Positions 2,793-30,594 of a stretch of DNA of 64,000 nt are shown here, one piece after another. The stretch covers positions 1 to 64,000 of the forward strand of contig KZ538044.1 of assembly GCA_000934665.2 (NCBI GenBank), given 5' to 3'. This DNA comes from Catajapyx aquilonaris. Taxonomy: Eukaryota. The first letter of the stretch is position 1, and the number at the start of each line of letters is the position of its first letter. The notes under the pieces were generated by a model. That model worked only from the letters and a program-made list of their open reading frames with translations. It had not been told where the DNA came from and made no database searches. The translations under genes were made by a program, and so were the position numbers.

Positions 2793-3302
2793 CAGGGCAT
2801 TTCATAATGACTCCGGCAGAGTTCTAAGGAGAACTCCTAGGCACCAAAGAATAATTGTATTATTATGTGGACGTGACATTTAGTGCTGGCAATCCGAGAT
2901 AATTCGCATTGAACAGAATAATACTTTACGCCATCTCCTGTGTCGGAGATATAGCCTCTGATACGTCCATCATCGTCTCCTTTTACACCTAATGAGATAA
3001 CATTCAAAATGGCATGATATATTTCAATTTGAAAAGTTACACGATGTTTTACACCTTATTGTGTTGAATGAAGCCCATTATCTCGGAAAGTAGAGCCAAC
3101 TGAGAGATGTATGCCTGGTTGCACCAACAAAATTACCGGTCCGATAGCTCCTAACAGACCGATAGCACATGTTAAAAGGTCTACCTATCTGTCCATTAGG
3201 AGCTATCGGACCGGTAATTTTGTTGGTGCAACCAGGCATTAGAGATCCTTAGTCCCCGGGAGTTCCACTAGAATGTTGCAGGAATCATAATGGAAAAACC
3301 TG
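2793..3302. mobile_element. Old, degenerate Tc1/mariner-type MITE inside the globin B12.2 intron
   Basis: TA|CAGGGCATTTCATAATGACTCCGGCAGAGTTCTAAGGAGAACTCC... versus the reverse complement of the right end, TA|CAGGTTTTTCCATTATGATTCCTGCAACATTCTAGTGGAACTCC... Alignable over about 55 bp with many mismatches. TA on both flanks. Confidence 0.55.
3111..3239. mobile_element. Young foldback MITE (perfect 44-bp inverted arms), possibly PIF/Harbinger-derived
   Basis: ATGCCTGGTTGCACCAACAAAATTACCGGTCCGATAGCTCCTAA (3111-3154) is exactly inverted at 3196-3239. Spacer of about 41 nt with partial further pairing. The superfamily assignment is tentative. Confidence 0.75.
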
Positions 3303-3344
3303 TATAGTGCTGTTTCCCATTAAACAATGTCAAATATTACATAG

Positions 3345-3570
3345 GTTATTCAATAAGTATCCGACATACCAGAAATTATTTTCCCACTTTGCTGACGTCC
3401 CGACCAATGAACTGGAAAATAACGAAGGTGTTCTCGTCCATGCTAATGCTATCATGACCATGATCTCTAACTGCATGGACAAATTGGATAAGACGTCAGC
3501 TCTGAAGGCACTTCTGGTCACATTGGGTCGACAACACATTTCAAGGAAAGTTGGGGTGCAACACTTCCAG
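3345..3570 (+). CDS. Globin coding exon 3 (heme-binding core, B12-G6)
   Basis: Acceptor ATTACATAG|. Encodes LFNKYPTYQKLFSHFADVPTNELENNEGVLVHANAIMTMISNCMDKLDKTSALKALLVTLGRQHISRKVGVQHFQ, with Pro C2, Phe CD1, distal His E7 (VHA) and proximal His F8 (RQH). Donor CAG|GTAAGT at the conserved G7.0 position. Confidence 0.95.
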
Positions 3571-3673
3571 GTAAGTTACACCTGGTATAGTGGCAATATA
3601 CCGTATACGAGTATGTATCTCTCGCCATGGCGCAGCAAAAGTGAGAATAATAAATCTTTATTTCCAATCATAG

Positions 3674-3844
3674 CATTTGAAGGATGTGTTCATCGAAGTT
3701 TTGAAGACAGTAAAAGGCGTTAAGGTTACAGATAAAGATGAGAAAGCATGGAAAAATGTGTTGAATTTTATCGTTGGCTTCATCAGTGAAGGACTTACCA
3801 GCAATCAGCCCCTAATATTTGCAATCGACAAGGAAGAATCCTGA
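3674..3844 (+). CDS. Globin coding exon 4 (helices G-H, stop)
   Basis: Acceptor TTTCCAATCATAG|. Encodes HLKDVFIEVLKTVKGVKVTDKDEKAWKNVLNFIVGFISEGLTSNQPLIFAIDKEES*, with the H-helix AW motif. TGA at 3842-3844. Spliced CDS is 579 nt (192 aa). Confidence 0.92.
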   Translation, partial: HLKDVFIEVLKTVKGVKVTDKDEKAWKNVLNFIVGFISEGLTSNQPLIFAIDKEES

Positions 3845-4009: not shown

Positions 4010-4157
4010 TACTTCTGAGGTCCTCCTTCCGATCCCCGGCTGAAGATATGAATTTTTCATGGATCAATAGTGTCAACTGGTTCTCTCCGTGTTCGCAGAC
4101 GACTTTCTCGAGGTTCTCCAGTTTTCTTTCACTTAAATTTCAGCCATTAAAAATAAA
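4010..4157 (+). mobile_element. Decayed tRNA-derived SINE fragment downstream of the globin stop
   Basis: GAGGTCCTCCTTCCGATCCCCGGC resembles a tRNA T-arm/B-box region (GAGGTCCCGGGTTCGATCCCCGGC). GACTTTCTCGAGGTTCTCCAGTTTTC resembles the GGTTTTCTCCGGGTACTCCGGTTTCC core shared by many metazoan SINEs. Ends in an A-rich tail containing AATAAA. Confidence 0.4.
4152..4157 (+). terminator. Putative poly(A) signal of the globin gene
   Basis: First AATAAA seen downstream of the globin stop, followed by a T-rich tract near 4199-4208. Confidence 0.5.
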
Positions 4158-4202
4158 TGTCAGACTTATTTAAACAAGCAAGATTGAATCAGACAGTATT
4201 TT

Positions 4203-4208
4203 TTTATT
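4203..4208 (-). terminator. Putative poly(A) signal of the hexamerin-like gene
   Basis: TTTATT on + (AATAAA on -), about 70 nt past the stop codon at 4278. Confidence 0.7.
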
Positions 4209-4277
4209 GTCACATGAAAGGGCACATGTTCAGGTAAAACAGTGTGTGGAAAACGTTGGCTTGTCGGCAACAAGTGC

Positions 4278-5821
4278 TCAGTAGGCGGTTTCAATGTGCT
4301 TGACGACGACGTCAACGAACTTCATGTTCTGGGTCTGGAAGGCAGACTTGACGTATTGGCGGATGGGACGGTCGAAGGGGTAGCCCATGCTCCTGGCGAA
4401 GGGATAGGTGCCGTCGACCAGGCCGCACTGGGCGTAGGTGGGGATGTAGTGCTCCTCTGAGGCACTGACCACGACATCCTTCTCTTGCTGTTGCTGCTGG
4501 TAGAAGCGAGCCTGCTGCTGGTACTGCTGCTTGTAGATTGGCTGGTTCAGATACTGGTGCTTGTAGTGCTCCACGATCTCCTTCTCGGCATCGGTTACCA
4601 TGACCAGGAGGTTGAACTTGATTCCCTCTGGGGTGCCACGGGGCAGGAGGATGCTGCTGGGGATTCCGCAGCGGGGCTGGTTCTCCTGGACGTAGAAGAC
4701 TGCCTTGCCCTGCTTGGCGGCGACCACCTCCTCGATCAGCTGCTTGAAGCCCTGGCTCTCGGGGACAGTCAGGCTGGAGTCCTTGGAGGAGCGGCGGATG
4801 ACGGTCTCGCCCTGCTGGATCTCGGTGATAAACTTGTCCAGCTCGACGTAGTGCTGGCGCTGCTGGCTCAGGGGGATCTCGGCGCCATAGTGGTCGTACA
4901 CGGGGGCCAGGAATATGCGGACAAATGCCTTCTTCGCAGCGGTGGACCTGACCTTGATCACGTACTGGAAGCTCTTGTGGCGTAGGCGCTGGGTCTCCAG
5001 CTGCTGCACTGGACTGATCACGTTGTCCTCAGCAGGAACGGTGTTGGCGAGATCCACGTTGAACTTGTCCATGTAGGTAGTCAGTACGTTGCGGGTGGCC
5101 TCCTGCTCTCCAACGACCTCAACGGTCTCCACCTCAACGCCAGGGAACTCAAGCTCCTCGCGAGTGTATGGGGTCTGCTGGTTCTGGTAGCGCTGACCAA
5201 GCTGGTTGATGAGCTCGGCAATTCGGTAGTAGGCAGGCTCCCTCACAAAGGACTGGAAACCCCTGGCCTGCTGCTGCTGTTGCTGGGCATCACTGGTTGC
5301 GTAGAGAGCGTTGCGCAGGCTGCCGTAATACGAAGGATTAGGGCTGTTCTCGCAGGCCTGGACCATCTTTCCAAGAACGTCCATGCCACGGGTCTGGTCG
5401 AAGTAAACTGACTGGCCGTAAACGTCGCGGGCGTAGCCACTGTCGATGGCCTCCTGAATGCGACGCTCCCACTGCTGGATCTGCTGCACCTCCTCTGCTG
5501 GATAGCGAGTGTAACTGCCATAACCTTGCTGCTGCTGGAGCTGCTGCTGGATCTCAGTCTTCTGGACGGGGCCAATGACACCCTGACGCTCCAGCTGCTG
5601 GAGGAGCTGGGTCTGATCAACGGGGCTGACGTATCCCTGCTGCTCCCTTTCTTGTTCCTGGCGCTGGACCTGCTGGAGAAGAGAGGCCTTTTCGATGGAG
5701 TTGATTGCACCCTGCTGCTGGAGGCGCTCCAGGACCTCTGCCTTGGCAATGGGGTTGATGGCACCCAGCTGTTGCAGAACCTTGCGCACGATCTGTTCCT
5801 TCTGGACGGAACCACCAAAAC

Positions 5822-5912
<91 letters not shown>

Positions 5913-8900
5913 ATCAAGCTGCTGCTGGTACTGCTGCTGGGCTTCTTCCTTCTGGTTGGAGCCAATCACACCTTCCTCCTGAAGCTTCTGCAGGTAGGCG
6001 AGTTTCTGGATGGTGTAGTAAGTCTGCTGTTGCAGCCGGCGGTTGTCATTGTCAGATGCAGAAAAGTAGCCATTCTGTCCTTGCTGCTGCTGCTGGAGCT
6101 GCTGCTGGATCTGAACCTTCTGGACGGGTCCAATGACACCCTGACGCTGCAGCTGCTGGAGGAGCTGGTCCTGGTCCACGGGGCTGACGTAGCCCTGCTG
6201 CTCTCTTTCCTGCTCCTGGCGCTGAGCCTGCTCCATAAGTTCGACCTTCTCAGGGGAGCTGATGGCACCCTGCTGCTGAAGACTCTCCAGAACCTGGATC
6301 TTGGCAACGGGGCTTATGGCACCCTGCTGCTGGACGACTTGACGCACGATCTGTTCCTTCTGGACGGAGCCAGCAAGACCCTGCTGCTGTTGCTCCTGGA
6401 GCTGCTGTTGATACTGCTGCTGGGCTGCCTCCTTCTCGATTGAGCTGATCTTGCCTTCCTGCTGCAGCTTCTGGAGATAGGCGAGTTTCTGGATGGTGTA
6501 AAGAACCTGCTGTTGCTGGTATGCCTGCTCCCTTCCCGCTGGGTATCTGGATGAGGAGCCATAATAACTGCTAAATCCTTCATTCTGCTGCCTTTGGAGC
6601 TGCTTCTGGATCTGATACTTCTCGACGGGTCCGATCACACCCTGGCGCTCGAGCTGCTGAACAAGTTCGGCCAGGTCACCACGACTGACATAGCCTTCAT
6701 CCCTTTCCTGCTCCTGGCGCTGGACCTGCTGCAGAAGAGCTGCCTTCTCAGCAGGGTTGATGGCACCCTGCTGCTGAAGACGTTCCAGAACCTGAATCTT
6801 GGCGACCGGGCTGATGGCACCCTGCTGCTGCACTACCTTGCTCACGATCTGTTCCTTCTCAACGGAGTCACCCAAACCCTGCTGCTGCTGCTGCTGATCA
6901 AGCTGCTGCTGGTACTGCTGCTGGGCTTTCTCCTTCTGGACGGGACCAATTACACCTTCCCGCTGAAGCTTCTGCAGGTAGGCGAGTTTCTGGATGGTGT
7001 AGAAAACCTGCTGCTGCTGCTGGTATGTCTGCTGAAAGCGCTCCTCATTGCCAGAGGAAGGGAAGAAGAATCCTTTCGGTCTCTGCTGCTGCTGGAGCTG
7101 CTGCTGAATCTGAACTTTTTCGACGGATCCGATGAGACTCTGGCGCTCGAGCTGCTGCAGAATCTGGGCCTGATCAACGGGGCTGACATATCCCTGCTGC
7201 TCTCTTTCCTGTTCCTGACTCTGGACCTTCTGGAGAAGTTGGACCTCCTCGACACGAGAGATGGCACCCTGTTGCTGGAGACGTTCCACAACCTCAGCCT
7301 TGGCTTTGGGGCTGATGGCACCCTGCTGCTGCACGACCTTGCTCACAATCTGTTCCTTCTGGACGAAGCTGCCAACACCCTGCTGTCGAAGCTGATCCTG
7401 AAGTTGTTGCTGGTACTGCTGCTGGACTTCCTCTTTCTGGAAGGAGCCAATCACACCTTTCTGCTGAAGCTTTTGCAGGTAGGCGAGTTTCTGGATGGTG
7501 TAGTAAGCCTGCTGCTGTGGTACCTCTCCTTCGGTGGTGTAACGGTAGTAGCCATTGTAGCTGCCATATCCTTGCTGCTGCTGTTGCTGGAGCTGCTGCT
7601 GGATCTCAGTCTTCTCGACGGGGCCAATGACACCCTGACGCTCCAGCTGCTGCAGTATCTGGGCCTGATCAACGGGGCTGGCGTATCCCTGCTGCTCCCT
7701 TTCCTGTTCCTGGCCCTGGACCTGCTGGAGAAGAGAGGCCTTCTCGACGGAGTTGATTGCACCCTGCTGCTGGAGGCGCTCCAGGACCTCTGCCTTGGCA
7801 ATGGGGTTGATGGCACCCTGCTGTCGCAGAACCTTGCGCACGATCTGTTCCTTCTGGATGGAACCACCAAAACCCTGCTGCTGCTGCTGCTGATCAAGCT
7901 GCTGCTGGTACTGCTGCTGGACTTCTTCCTTCTGGTTGGAGCCAATCACACCTTCCTCCTGAAGCTTCTGCAGGTAGGCGAGTTTCTGGATGGTGTAGTA
8001 AGCCTGTTGTTGCTTCCGGCGGTTGTCATTGTCAGAGGCAGAAAAGTAGCCATTCAGTCCTTGCTGCTGGAGCTGGAGCTGTTGCTGGATCTGAGCCTTC
8101 TCGACGGGTCCAATGACACCCTGACGCTGCAGCTGCTGGAGGAGCTGTTCCTGGTCCACAGGGCTGACGTAGCCCTGTTGCCTCTCCTGCTCTTGGCTCT
8201 GGACCTGCTGCAGAAGTTCGTTCTTCTCGATGGAGTTGATTGCACCCTGCTGCTGAAGACGCCCCAGGACCTCGACCTTGGCTATGGGGCTTATGGCACC
8301 CTGCTGCTGGAGAACCTTACGCACGATCTGTTCCTTCTGGACGGAGCCATCAATATCCTGCTGCTGATCAAGCTGCTGCTGGTACTGCTGCTGTGCTTCC
8401 TCCTTCTCGATTGAGCTGATCTTTCCTTCCTGCTGCAGTTTCTGGAGATAGGCAAGCTTCTCGATTGTGTACAGGGATCCACGCTGCTGGTTTATCTGCT
8501 GCCTGAGCTCTTCCTTCTCGATGGTATTGATGATACCCTCCTGCTGCAGGCGCTCCAGAAGCTGCTCCTTCTCGATATCAGTCTCCAGCCCCTGTTGCTG
8601 CTGCAGTTGCTGCAGAAGCTCCAACTTTTCAATGGGGGTAGTAAAACCCTGATTCTGAGAATAGTATCCAGTGGAATAGCTCTGTCCGATGGAGGAAAAG
8701 TCGCGGGGGTCGTATCCGAAGCTCTGGACGAAGGGCAGGTTGCTGCTCAGGCGGGCCTGGTTGTAACGGGCGAGGGTCTGCTGGATGAAGTGGTAGAAGA
8801 GCTCTCCTTGGCGCTCCTGGCTCTGGCAATTCCAGAAGGGGAACTGCTTGTGGAAGATGTCGTGGAGCTGACCCAAGCCAACGTCGTCGGAATGGTAAGC

Positions 8901-8963
8901 GACAAAGCGCTGCTCGGGGTTGTAGTACTTGTAGGCGAAAGAGGTGGGGACCACCACTCCGTT
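4278..8963 (-). CDS. Hemocyanin-superfamily (hexamerin/pseudo-hemocyanin) exon 4: Hemocyanin_M domain split by a Gln-rich repeat insert, then the Hemocyanin_C domain
   Basis: Acceptor TTTTACTTCTAG| at 8964, then a 4686-nt open exon. Motifs: EQRFVAYHSDDVGL..HDIFH..FPFW..RQGELFY..QQTLARY..RLS (CuA region); WERRIQEAIDSG; YYGSL; REPAYYR; PYTREELEFPGV; RLRHKSF; VRIFLAP; VELDKF; CGIP..LLPRG; MGYPFDRPI; NMKFVDV. Confidence 0.96.
5510..8471 (-). repeat. Six coding tandem repeats (~474-510 nt; ~158-170 aa), Gln-rich
   Basis: Units start with YTI(E/Q)KLAYLQKLQ at 8471, 7997, 7502, 7001, 6500 and 6017. A partial unit lies at about 8472-8640. Confidence 0.95.
5823..5912 (-). repeat. Uninterrupted (CAG)30 coding microsatellite (poly-Gln)
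   Basis: 90 nt of pure CTG on + inside repeat unit 6. Confidence 0.95.
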
Positions 8964-9278
8964 CTAGAAGTAAAACCGTTTCGTTGTTATTAACTTAATT
9001 GCGGACAATTTTCCAAAGTTATACTTATTAAAATCTCAAATGATTCATATTAAATGCGTTAGTTGAGCAACGCATTTTAAGTAATTAAGTTCACTTTATT
9101 TCTGCAATTTGAACTTCTAATCATCAGTGCTAACGTCTTATATATTTTTTAACCTGCACAAAAATATTAAATGTAACACTCATCATTGATCAAAATAATG
9201 AGAAGGAACCAATACTTTCAGGGTGCAAAAATAGTTACTGAAATAACCAATTGAGTTACTGAGAGTTACTGAGCTCAC

Positions 9279-9623
9279 CTGTCCTGCTCCAGCAGCACCG
9301 TAAGCCTGACTAAGGGCCTCAGGACCGAAGTAGTTTCCAGGAAGGACCTCGTAGGTCGGAGGGATCTTGAAATCCTGAGAGTCAGCGCGGTGCAGCAGTG
9401 CGGTGGTGTACGCGTACACGAACATGTACTCGTTCACACGCTGTCGGGCCCAGGCGGCAGTCTTGTGGAAGGTCTCCCAGTCCTTGGCCTGGTGCAACAT
9501 CTGGAAGAGGGTCACCATCTCCCGACGGTGGGATTCCTCCAAGACGTTGAAGGCAACGCCCCGGCGGAGAATCTGGCCCTGTTCCACCTGCTGCACGTAC
9601 TGCTGGATACGCTGCTCAGGTAC
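9279..9623 (-). CDS. Hexamerin-like exon 3 (Hemocyanin_N domain)
   Basis: Acceptor GGCATGTAG|, donor CAG|GTGAGC, 115 codons: VPEQRIQQYVQQVEQGQILRRGVAFNVLEESHRREMVTLFQMLHQAKDWETFHKTAAWARQRVNEYMFVYAYTTALLHRADSQDFKIPPTYEVLPGNYFGPEALSQAYGAAGAGQ. Contains the classic AKDWETFxKTAAWARxRVNExMFVYA motif. Confidence 0.95.
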
Positions 9624-9883
9624 CTACATGCCAAAAGCCATCGATGCACATTCAAAAAATGAAAGTTACATTCGGACCAGAAAGCTTAATCAAGGACAAA
9701 TAATAATTAACTTTAATTTGAACTTCTACAGTCATATGGCAGTGTAAACAGCCATCCAGCAGTAGACAAGCATAAAGAAGTGACGGATGATGTTAAGTAT
9801 TTAAATATTGAATATAATGACAGTTCATGTACATTGTAATTTACATTGTCCATCGAGAATTTACATCGAGAATTGTAACTTAC

Positions 9884-10017
9884 ATTGTAATAGCTGGAGT
9901 AACGGGTGGGGTTGTAAGTGTCGGCGATCTCCCTCAGCTCTGCGTCCTGGATGGCCTGCTGGGGTCTGGTCAGAAGCTTGTAGATGGCATGTTGCCTGTC
10001 CAGGAAGTCCTGGTCGG
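9884..10017 (-). CDS. Hexamerin-like exon 2
   Basis: Acceptor TGTTCCACAG|, donor AAT|GTAAGT. Encodes (A)DQDFLDRQHAIYKLLTRPQQAIQDAELREIADTYNPTRYSSYYN, matching the ADxxFLxKQ-type start of hexamerin/hemocyanin domain 1. Phases (1 in, 0 out) fit the neighbouring exons. Confidence 0.9.
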
Positions 10018-10093
10018 CTGTGGAACATAGTTAACCATCATAGTGAACAATGCATGGTTTGGCCGCTAGAAATAAATTAGTGAGGACACCTAC

Positions 10094-10163
10094 CGATGGG
10101 ACGGGCCCACTGTCCGACGGCCACTCCGACCAGGAGGGCAAGAAACGCAACTGTCACTTTCAT
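10094..10163 (-). CDS. Hexamerin-like exon 1 (signal peptide)
   Basis: ATG at 10163. MKVTVAFLALLVGVAVG|QWARPI is a typical signal peptide. Donor G|GTAGGT, phase 1. Total CDS is 5235 nt (1744 aa). Confidence 0.9.
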
Positions 10164-10227: not shown

Positions 10228-10400
10228 AGATTGAGAACCTGTCCGGACCATTTATACCAGAGGGAGGGAAGGGCCGTGTGCAGCATCTCATCCTGTTCCA
10301 GTTGTAATCTGCATGTCTTTGACACTTCGGTTATCGTAATGAAGTAGTATGGTTCATTGAGAACTTGAACCTGACCAATAAAGTGAATTTGTTATCGTCT
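10228..10400 (-). promoter_or_regulatory. Hexamerin-like gene promoter: TATA box with upstream GATA and nuclear-receptor-like half sites
   Basis: TATAAAT on - at 10256-10250, about 90 nt upstream of the ATG. GATAA motifs (TTATC on +) at about 10331 and 10393, and another at about 10642. GGTTCA/TGAACC/TGACC half-site cluster at 10351-10376. The TATA call is well supported; the other sites are short and tentative. Confidence 0.55.
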
Positions 10401-13354: not shown

Positions 13355-13423
13355 CAGGGGCGGATCCAAGGGGGGGGGGGNCATGACCCCCCCCCCCCAA
13401 TCGAAAGTCTGGATCCGCCCCTG
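13355..13423. mobile_element. Tiny hAT-like MITE with 8-bp target-site duplication
   Basis: 14-bp TIRs CAGGGGCGGATCCA / TGGATCCGCCCCTG. Identical 8-bp flanks ACCGTATG (13347-13354 and 13424-13431). The interior is poly-G/poly-C with an N, so the true length is uncertain. Confidence 0.85.
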
Positions 13424-30564: not shown

Positions 30565-30594
30565 GGGGGGGGGGGGGGNNNNNNNNNNNNNNNN
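30565..30594. other. Poly-G tract adjoining an assembly gap (Ns)
   Basis: Run of G followed by 16 N. Confidence 0.9.

Follow-up and report, generated by a model that had tools for sequence, protein, structure and literature searches.

The first 64,000 nucleotides (nt) of contig KZ538044.1 from Catajapyx aquilonaris (assembly GCA_000934665.2), referred to below as the window, have a G+C content of about 42% and carry on the minus strand a four-exon gene for a hemocyanin-superfamily member of 1744 amino acids (aa), which is real and transcribed. The protein holds the Hemocyanin_N, Hemocyanin_M, and Hemocyanin_C domains in order, the second of them opened between its two former copper sites by a Gln-rich insert of 1057 aa made of six ordered repeat units.

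Structure of the gene and of its product

The gene is built around a stop-to-stop open reading frame of 1561 codons (8963..4278, minus strand), which bears out the single stop-free exon of 4.7 kb described in an initial annotation of this DNA. Joined to three upstream exons through GT..AG borders, it yields a spliced coding sequence (CDS) of 5235 nt with one terminal stop, giving the 1744 aa previously proposed, and the calculated mass of the mature protein, 199.8 kDa, agrees with the earlier figure of about 200 kDa. The features of the gene are listed below; the repeat units occupying the rest of exon 4 are given with the description of the array, and sequencing run X5 and the relative P0016 are introduced in the sections that follow.

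10251..10256, minus strand: TATAAA box, 88 nt 5' of the ATG (by eye, unscored)
10094..10163, minus strand: exon 1, with the ATG and the signal-peptide-like start MKVTVAFLALLVGVAVG
10093-10018, minus strand: intron 1, precisely spliced out of an X5 contig
9884..10017, minus strand: exon 2, start of the mature protein and lead of the N domain, aligning to relative P0016
9883-9624, minus strand: intron 2, precisely spliced out of an X5 contig
9279..9623, minus strand: exon 3, Hemocyanin_N, 77% identical to P0016
9278-8964, minus strand: intron 3, with GT..AG borders, crossed by no RNA contig
8643..8963, minus strand: exon 4, first part, first half of Hemocyanin_M with the former CuA site (two of three His kept)
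8472..8642, minus strand: exon 4, start of the insert, three helix-turn motifs ahead of unit U1 (residues 291-347)
4281..5471, minus strand: exon 4, last part, second half of Hemocyanin_M with the former CuB site (all three His lost) and Hemocyanin_C, from Pfam, sequence matches in the PDB, and inspection of the His residues
4278..4280, minus strand: stop codon TGA
4203..4208, minus strand: AATAAA polyadenylation signal, about 70 nt 3' of the stop (by eye)

The spliced protein matches the three Pfam families of the superfamily, namely PF03722 (5.7e-28), PF00372 (5.6e-28, in two stretches), and PF03723 (1.5e-61), and the insert-free core measures 687 aa, very near the 700 or so residues initially estimated for the N, M, and C domains together. 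The Hemocyanin_M match is broken by the insert, profile positions 44-127 lying upstream of it and 151/156-265 downstream. The insert itself comprises residues 291-1347 (window 8642-5472) and is flanked by ...GYYSQNQGF and WERRIQEAIDSG, exactly where an insertion of about 1050 aa had been placed. A frame of 4.7 kb that remains open at about 42% G+C, with family-level Pfam matches on either side, puts this gene beyond chance. As for the claimed intact signal peptide, a hydrophobic, signal-peptide-like N-terminal start is indeed present, although it has been judged by eye only, so the protein is probably secreted.

The G+C content at third codon positions (GC3) is 0.72-0.82 across the CDS, versus about 42% G+C for the window, and 0.72 in the insert. 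Similarly, CAG accounts for 92-94% of the Gln codons throughout the CDS and for 92% in the insert. This strong codon bias fits heavy expression at some stage. Glu codons behave differently from Gln codons, since GAG represents 60% of them in the insert versus 86-97% in the two core parts, a split that the Gln codons do not show.

Evidence for transcription

Five sequencing runs cover the stretch: four DNA runs from one sample and study, and X5, a run of unrecorded kind from another study and year. Contigs from three of the four DNA runs and from X5 were compared with the window, and all statements made below about bridges and joints apply among the contigs listed for those runs. X5 contigs skip exactly positions 10018-10093 and 9624-9883, which correspond to introns 1 and 2, and because they are spliced at these two GT..AG introns, X5 is taken as cDNA.

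Within and across the repeat array, X5 contigs cover positions 4951-5556, 5571-5726, 6110-7002 (across the U5/U4 junction), 7170-7503, and 7623-7778. None of the X5 contigs listed shows a joint that skips the array, a splicing event named in the initial annotation among those that would overturn it. The border between the insert and the core at 5472 is crossed both by the X5 contig 4951-5556 and by DNA contigs spanning 4951-5562.

X5 also contains contigs 95-99% similar to the C-terminal coding part of the gene (4214-5069) at a word depth of about 10^4, and the DNA runs contain a contig that shares their variants (positions 4744, 4767, and 4784) at approximately twice the single-copy depth. 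The very deep contigs look as though they come from one or two paralogues, expressed very strongly and nearly identical in their C-terminal part.

Copper sites and family placement

Functional hemocyanins and phenoloxidases hold six copper-ligand His residues, arranged as H-x3-H...H in the CuA site and again as H-x3-H...H in the CuB site. In the columns that we take to be the ligand positions on the basis of this established knowledge, H217 and H221 are kept, while the other four are replaced by I243, R1400, Y1404, and A1432. The same pattern, with two of the six His kept, is found in relatives P0005 and P0016. With four of the six copper His lost, the protein no longer has the means for oxygen or phenoloxidase chemistry and is neither an oxygen carrier nor a phenoloxidase.

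A total of 24 PDB sequences match the protein at E <= 1e-10, all of them hemocyanins, phenoloxidases, or hexamerins except two titled 'TK receptor'. The best matches are crustacean hemocyanins (6l8s, 1.7e-59; 1hc1, 1.4e-58), followed by insect hexamerins at 1e-41 and weaker. In these alignments the loop that carries the insert corresponds to chain residues ~246-281 of 6L8S and ~250-285 of 1HC1. The closest sequences are two fragments that bear only UniParc numbers: P0016 (263 aa), 79% identical over the N-terminal part, and P0005 (425 aa), 67% identical over the C-terminal part. P0016 ends seven residues past the loop YYP and P0005 starts 19 residues before WERR, so that both break at the loop where the array is located, which hints, without amounting to evidence, that a relative 67-79% identical to this protein also has a region that is difficult to assemble at this point, perhaps a conserved array. 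The best named relative is hexamerin 2 from the dipluran Octostigma sinensis, with 35% identity, and the ESM Atlas points to Arthropoda without finer resolution.

A phylogeny of the insert-free core, one of the checks originally proposed, was computed with 10 rows, a set without crustacean or hexapod hemocyanins, cryptocyanins, or FBP1. In this tree the protein pairs with P0005 on a separate long branch (100/100), outside a clade that contains the Schistocerca hexamerin-like protein, P0003, and Hex110 (99/98). Hex110 is on a different branch, and placement with respect to Octostigma hexamerin 2 and the copper proteins is weak (56/35). As its relation to the hexapod hexamerin clade is weakly resolved, copper-free hemocyanin derivative is the safe name for the protein.

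Metagenome contigs were also scanned for the locus of the relative. None of the 595 pattern matches in a first scan proved to be related, and a second scan yielded 150 pattern matches and two loci with 31-33% identity. One of these loci (L001, 1345-3554) encodes an ordinary-sized, intron-bearing hexamerin-like gene, 33% identical to P0016, in which the loop lacks the array.

Anatomy and constraint of the repeat array

The insert contains 30.2% Gln, 39.1% Glu plus Gln (Glx), and 5.5% Lys, with no Cys, Trp, or His, and the array has a mass of 122 kDa; for the whole protein, the values are 22.8% Gln and 30.8% Glx. The six Gln-rich units of about 165 aa noticed at the outset are readily recovered, each anchored by the sequence YTI[QE]KLAYLQKLQ at residues 348, 506, 671, 838, 1005, and 1166, with lengths of 158-182 aa:

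7998..8471, minus strand: repeat unit U1, 158 aa
7503..7997, minus strand: repeat unit U2, 165 aa
7002..7502, minus strand: repeat unit U3, 167 aa; DNA contigs 6973-7503 cross U4/U3
6501..7001, minus strand: repeat unit U4, 167 aa; U5/U4 crossed by DNA contigs 6343-6903 and by the X5 contig 6110-7002
6018..6500, minus strand: repeat unit U5, 161 aa, 89% nt identity to U1
5472..6017, minus strand: repeat unit U6, 182 aa, 94% nt identity to U2, with a CAG run at 5823-5939

A repeat search of the DNA returned six copies spaced at 483-558 nt, together with a 300-nt pair that is 95% identical and lies 1980 nt apart. The units share 65-91% identity as proteins and 74-94% as DNA in pairwise comparisons, and U6 includes a pure run of 39 CAG repeats. 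Each unit is in turn built from about seven copies of an 18-19-residue helix-turn motif of the form [IV]-[EQA]-K-x-x-[ILV]-[LQ]-x-x-L-Q-x-Q-G-[AV]-I-x-[SP], with three extra copies ahead of U1. A profile made from 13 clean copies of this motif recognizes 32 stretches in the protein, 31 of which are within the insert.

The ratio of nonsynonymous to synonymous divergence (dN/dS) is 0.16-0.33 in all 15 pairs of units, with dS values of up to 1.23, which argues that the array is old and constrained as a protein. It is more than an open frame or the outcome of recent slippage. The resemblance of U1 to U5 and of U2 to U6 points to a duplication at a four-unit offset (1980 nt) as the last step, and the array as a whole arose by nested tandem duplication, from motif to unit and from unit to six units.

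An AlphaFold2 model of one unit, using the six units as the alignment, consists of seven helices, one per motif, with a mean confidence (pLDDT) of 48.4. A search of the insert against databases, also proposed initially, disclosed no relative in the collections covered: Pfam gave no match above its cut-offs for the unit or the insert; a profile of the six units had no match at E <= 0.001 among 1.84 billion representatives, a weak negative because these libraries under-sample the source organism; and the ESM Atlas gave no usable match for the unit, equally weak as the organism's own protein is missing there.

Two ideas about the motif were considered and rejected. An origin from the native helix that follows the insert (VQQIQQWERRIQEAIDSG) is not supported, since the motif profile misses this helix and, in 11 other proteins of the family, picks up nothing beyond two matches that are partial and negligible. 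A resemblance to the bacterial SHOCT motif was likewise not borne out, as Pfam at E values of up to 10 gave no SHOCT match for the insert or for U2. BLASTP aligned the tails of the units (YGSSSRYPAGRE) with the native P0003 loop at an E value of 3.2, which is not significant.

Comparison with known Gln-rich and copper-free members

Enlarged and Gln-rich members of this family have been described before. HEX 110 from Apis mellifera, which bears a signal peptide and is described as a storage hexamerin, has a C domain interrupted by a Glx-rich insertion of 291 aa and contains 20.9% Glx (PMC2861669). In the accessible part of the same source, hexamerins with more than 15% Glx are defined as very-high-Glx proteins, and HEX102 and HEX109 from Nasonia and FBP1 from Drosophila are reported to be enlarged as well (102-116 kDa, with 14-20% Glx), FBP1 reaching 116 kDa and 20% Glx; the significance of the trait is stated there to be unknown (PMC2861669). 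In a study of sawfly genomes, as far as its accessible text goes, the Gln enrichment of Hex110 has been tied to nitrogen management (PMC7455281).

A search of the relatives for long proteins identified two among 4570 candidates, P0004 and P0003. P0004, hexamerin 110 from the ant Temnothorax americanus, resembles the window protein in being copper-free and Gln-enlarged (21.6% Gln overall versus 22.8% here). However, its extra sequences align at residues ~1488 and ~1700-1704 of the window protein, in the C domain, and its Hemocyanin_M is unbroken, whereas the insert described here, 1057 aa long, is a nested repeat in strict order that splits the M domain (profile positions ~127 to ~151). Moreover, the two cores are 27% identical, and P0004 groups with other insect hexamerins in the tree. 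The window protein thus shows neither the C-domain insertion of Hex110 nor orthology to it, although it lies above the 15% Glx that defines very-high-Glx hexamerins. The ant alignment and the description of the bee protein (PMC2861669, in its accessible part) together uphold the original remark that Hex110-type insertions are far shorter and free of an array at the M-domain site.

P0003 (1716 aa) has an unbroken N/M/C core preceded by an N-terminal extension of ~1040 residues that contains 28.2% Gln. Its cluster includes XP_018330543.2 from Agrilus planipennis (LOC108740651, P0017, 2708 aa), annotated as uncharacterized. Like the window protein, P0003 is a giant family member with ~1040 residues of repetitive Gln-rich sequence and intact N, M, and C domains; in contrast, its Gln-rich part is N-terminal, before Hemocyanin_N and not within Hemocyanin_M, and the cores are 31% identical. 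BLASTP between the Gln-rich parts of both proteins detected no similarity (best E value 3.2). Judging from the search listings, none of the literature found on A. planipennis and hexamerins appears to concern XP_018330543.2.

By eye, XP_018330543.2 seems to consist of two tandem hexamerin-like genes fused in the annotation, with what looks like another signal peptide after residue ~1716. Of these genes, the first has the N-terminal extension of ~1040 aa at 28% Gln, and that of the second is shorter.

FBP1, HEX102, and HEX109, compared by description only, share with the window protein an enlarged size and a high Glx content, but they are about half as large. Copper-free derivatives are also known beyond insects, such as the pseudohemocyanins or cryptocyanins of decapods, CleHcBI2 from a diplopod, and the hexamerins of diplurans and collembolans, all of which have lost copper His and are presumed to be storage proteins (PMC6034248, PMC6850205). 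According to the accessible portions of these sources, they measure ~400-690 aa, several being partial, and have insertions of 9-16 aa located elsewhere, and no repeat array is reported in those portions.

No described protein with the same insert at the same position was found in a literature search whose coverage stopped short of subscription journals and supplements, so this check came out in favour of the initial annotation. The suggestion that the gene may represent a new class was, on the other hand, overstated, because Hex110, HEX102/109, FBP1, and the Agrilus protein are already enlarged and Gln-rich: giant Gln-rich family members exist, and this gene is no new class. What appears from the sequences compared to be new is the use of the loop between the copper sites of the M domain, the size of the in-domain insertion, and the strictly ordered nested repeat.

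Proposed role and alternative explanations

The explanation put forward, tentatively and with a little less than an even chance of being right, is that the protein is a Gln-rich reserve similar to storage hexamerins, with a folded, hexameric scaffold and a flexible appendage. The loop between the two former copper sites has expanded into the 122-kDa array. According to this proposal, the N, M, and C scaffold would still fold and would probably still be hexameric. The array would hang off this scaffold as a flexible, mostly helical appendage, and the protein would serve as a reserve, in haemolymph or fat body, with an unusually high content of amide nitrogen. The same solution would have been reached independently in Hex110, in the Agrilus extension, and here, at a third site in the fold. 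Three independent Gln-rich grafts onto the fold would favour a common selective cause, and the role documented for this family is storage.

Several observations weigh against this proposal. A storage function is drawn from family precedent and composition only, and the strict order of the motifs, together with dN/dS values well below 1, suggests a requirement beyond composition. The pLDDT of the unit model is too low to say anything about its fold. With respect to transcription, X5 cover is only trace at 7852-9349, leaving neither intron 3 nor the insert's 5' border with RNA support. Contigs specific to this gene reach a word depth of only ~5-10 over the array and the 5' exons, and of 59 at 4951-5556. 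Even though contig depth is a poor measure of expression, this does not look like a dominant, storage-like transcript in the X5 sample, whose stage and tissue are unrecorded. Finally, none of the contigs listed bridges the U6/U5, U3/U2, or U2/U1 junctions, so the number and order of the units rest on the original assembly.

A more speculative proposal, which is held to be unlikely, is that the protein would form a six-armed multivalent particle in which the ~45 conserved amphipathic helix-turn motifs of each subunit, akin to no known domain, could self-associate or be crosslinked through Gln and Lys, giving a curable gel, a cement, or a condensate-forming reserve. If this were true, it would represent a functional kind undescribed for the hemocyanin fold.

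The main alternative to storage is a clot, wound-plug, or matrix protein crosslinkable by transglutaminase, in which a hexamer with six Gln-rich, Lys-bearing arms would gel upon crosslinking. The insert offers the substrates for this reaction, with 30.2% Gln and with its 5.5% Lys regularly spaced in the motif [IV]-[EQ]-K-x-x, and both the kept order of the motifs and the dN/dS of 0.16-0.33 fit a structural requirement better than pure composition. In addition, Drosophila hexamerins and FBP1 have been reported as humoral procoagulants, a hexamerin being the main transglutaminase-labelled protein on microbes, in the accessible part of PMC2820530. The modest RNA depth poses no difficulty for such a function. 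Nevertheless, the unit resembles no known clotting or matrix protein (within the Pfam cut-offs, the 1.84 billion representatives, and the Atlas), and the closest Gln-rich enlarged precedents in the family are described as storage proteins. This role is likewise considered rather improbable.

It is quite unlikely that a surface loop in a minor hexamerin paralogue has simply run away in length, leaving an array that is tolerated and for the most part without function. The low depth of the RNA contigs relative to the paralogue-like ones would agree with this possibility, as would the lack of relatives of the unit in the search of 1.84 billion representatives, the low-confidence structure prediction, and the run of 39 CAG repeats at 5823-5939, which shows that slippage continues. 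Against this reading, the 3.2-kb frame is still open despite a dS between units of up to 1.23, dN/dS stays at 0.16-0.33 in each of the 15 pairs, and the codon bias of the insert (GC3 of 0.72, with CAG as 92% of Gln codons) is core-like.

That the number and order of the units, or even the entire array, are an artefact of short-read assembly is very unlikely. The concern is justified by the similarity of U1 to U5 (89%) and of U2 to U6 (94%), by the 300-nt stretch that recurs with 95% identity at 1980 nt, by the DNA contigs that break within the array, none of those listed crossing U6/U5, U3/U2, or U2/U1, and by the fact that the DNA runs may come from the source sample of the assembly itself, in which case they are not independent. 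Against it, the gene is free of N (the window has Ns only at 13381 and 30579-30594), the six units are all distinct, and DNA contigs cover the region in 30 of 30 bins and reproduce the borders 8642 and 5472 and the U5/U4 and U4/U3 junctions with 0-1 mismatches. The unique pieces of the array have a DNA depth of 28-36, single-copy and equal to that of the flanks. Furthermore, the segment of the U1 tail and U2 head at 7852-8065 shows a depth of 64-86 in the three DNA runs and its twin at 5926-6139 almost none, as expected for two real copies placed at one site, and X5, from a different study and year, reproduces 6110-7002 across U5/U4 and the insert/core border within 4951-5556.

A receptor-like role, in which this enlarged member of the family would bind and import other hexamerins as in Diptera, is extremely improbable, since known receptors are described as a dipteran group in the accessible part of PMC6034248 and the 10-row tree puts the protein outside the sampled insect hexamerin clade, even though FBP1 is likewise an enlarged member (116 kDa, 20% Glx; PMC2861669) and a highly expressed paralogue that could act as the ligand appears to exist.

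In all three DNA runs compared, a contig at single-copy depth joins position 7894 back to 7083 through 34 other letters. It was considered as an alternative order of the units and rejected, because the 34 letters, translated by hand, are unit-like in no frame and one frame contains His. On the strength of this hand translation, the contig probably derives from another CAG-rich locus.

Wider significance

The storage proteins that derive from hemocyanins are a classic example of how a respiratory protein is put to other uses. Among the sequences reached, no other in-domain expansion of the hemocyanin fold would be as large as the one described here, and it would represent the third independent site of a Gln-rich graft, after the N-terminus (Agrilus) and the C domain (Hymenoptera). 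The convergence of these three sites argues that the hexamer scaffold would be a general carrier of polypeptides rich in amide nitrogen. As an experiment of nature, the gene would also show how much foreign sequence can be accommodated in the loop between the copper sites. The ordered, selected, orphan helix-turn motif poses a separate question, as it hints at a property beyond composition.

Neighbouring DNA

The remainder of the window (10400-64000) contains no open reading frame of at least 200 aa, its two longest frames have no Pfam match, and no Rfam family was detected in the window; this is gene-poor flanking DNA, as in large genomes. On the other side, just past the 3' end of the hemocyanin-family gene and convergent with it on the opposite strand, a globin exon is located at 3253-3723 (plus strand; Pfam Globin, 7.4e-17), maybe together with 4018-4179; in the PDB it weakly matches cytoglobin and haemoglobins from invertebrates. 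A 760-nt X5 contig with a depth of 61 matches only positions 4018-4179 of the stretch compared, and it may hold a further exon of the globin gene.

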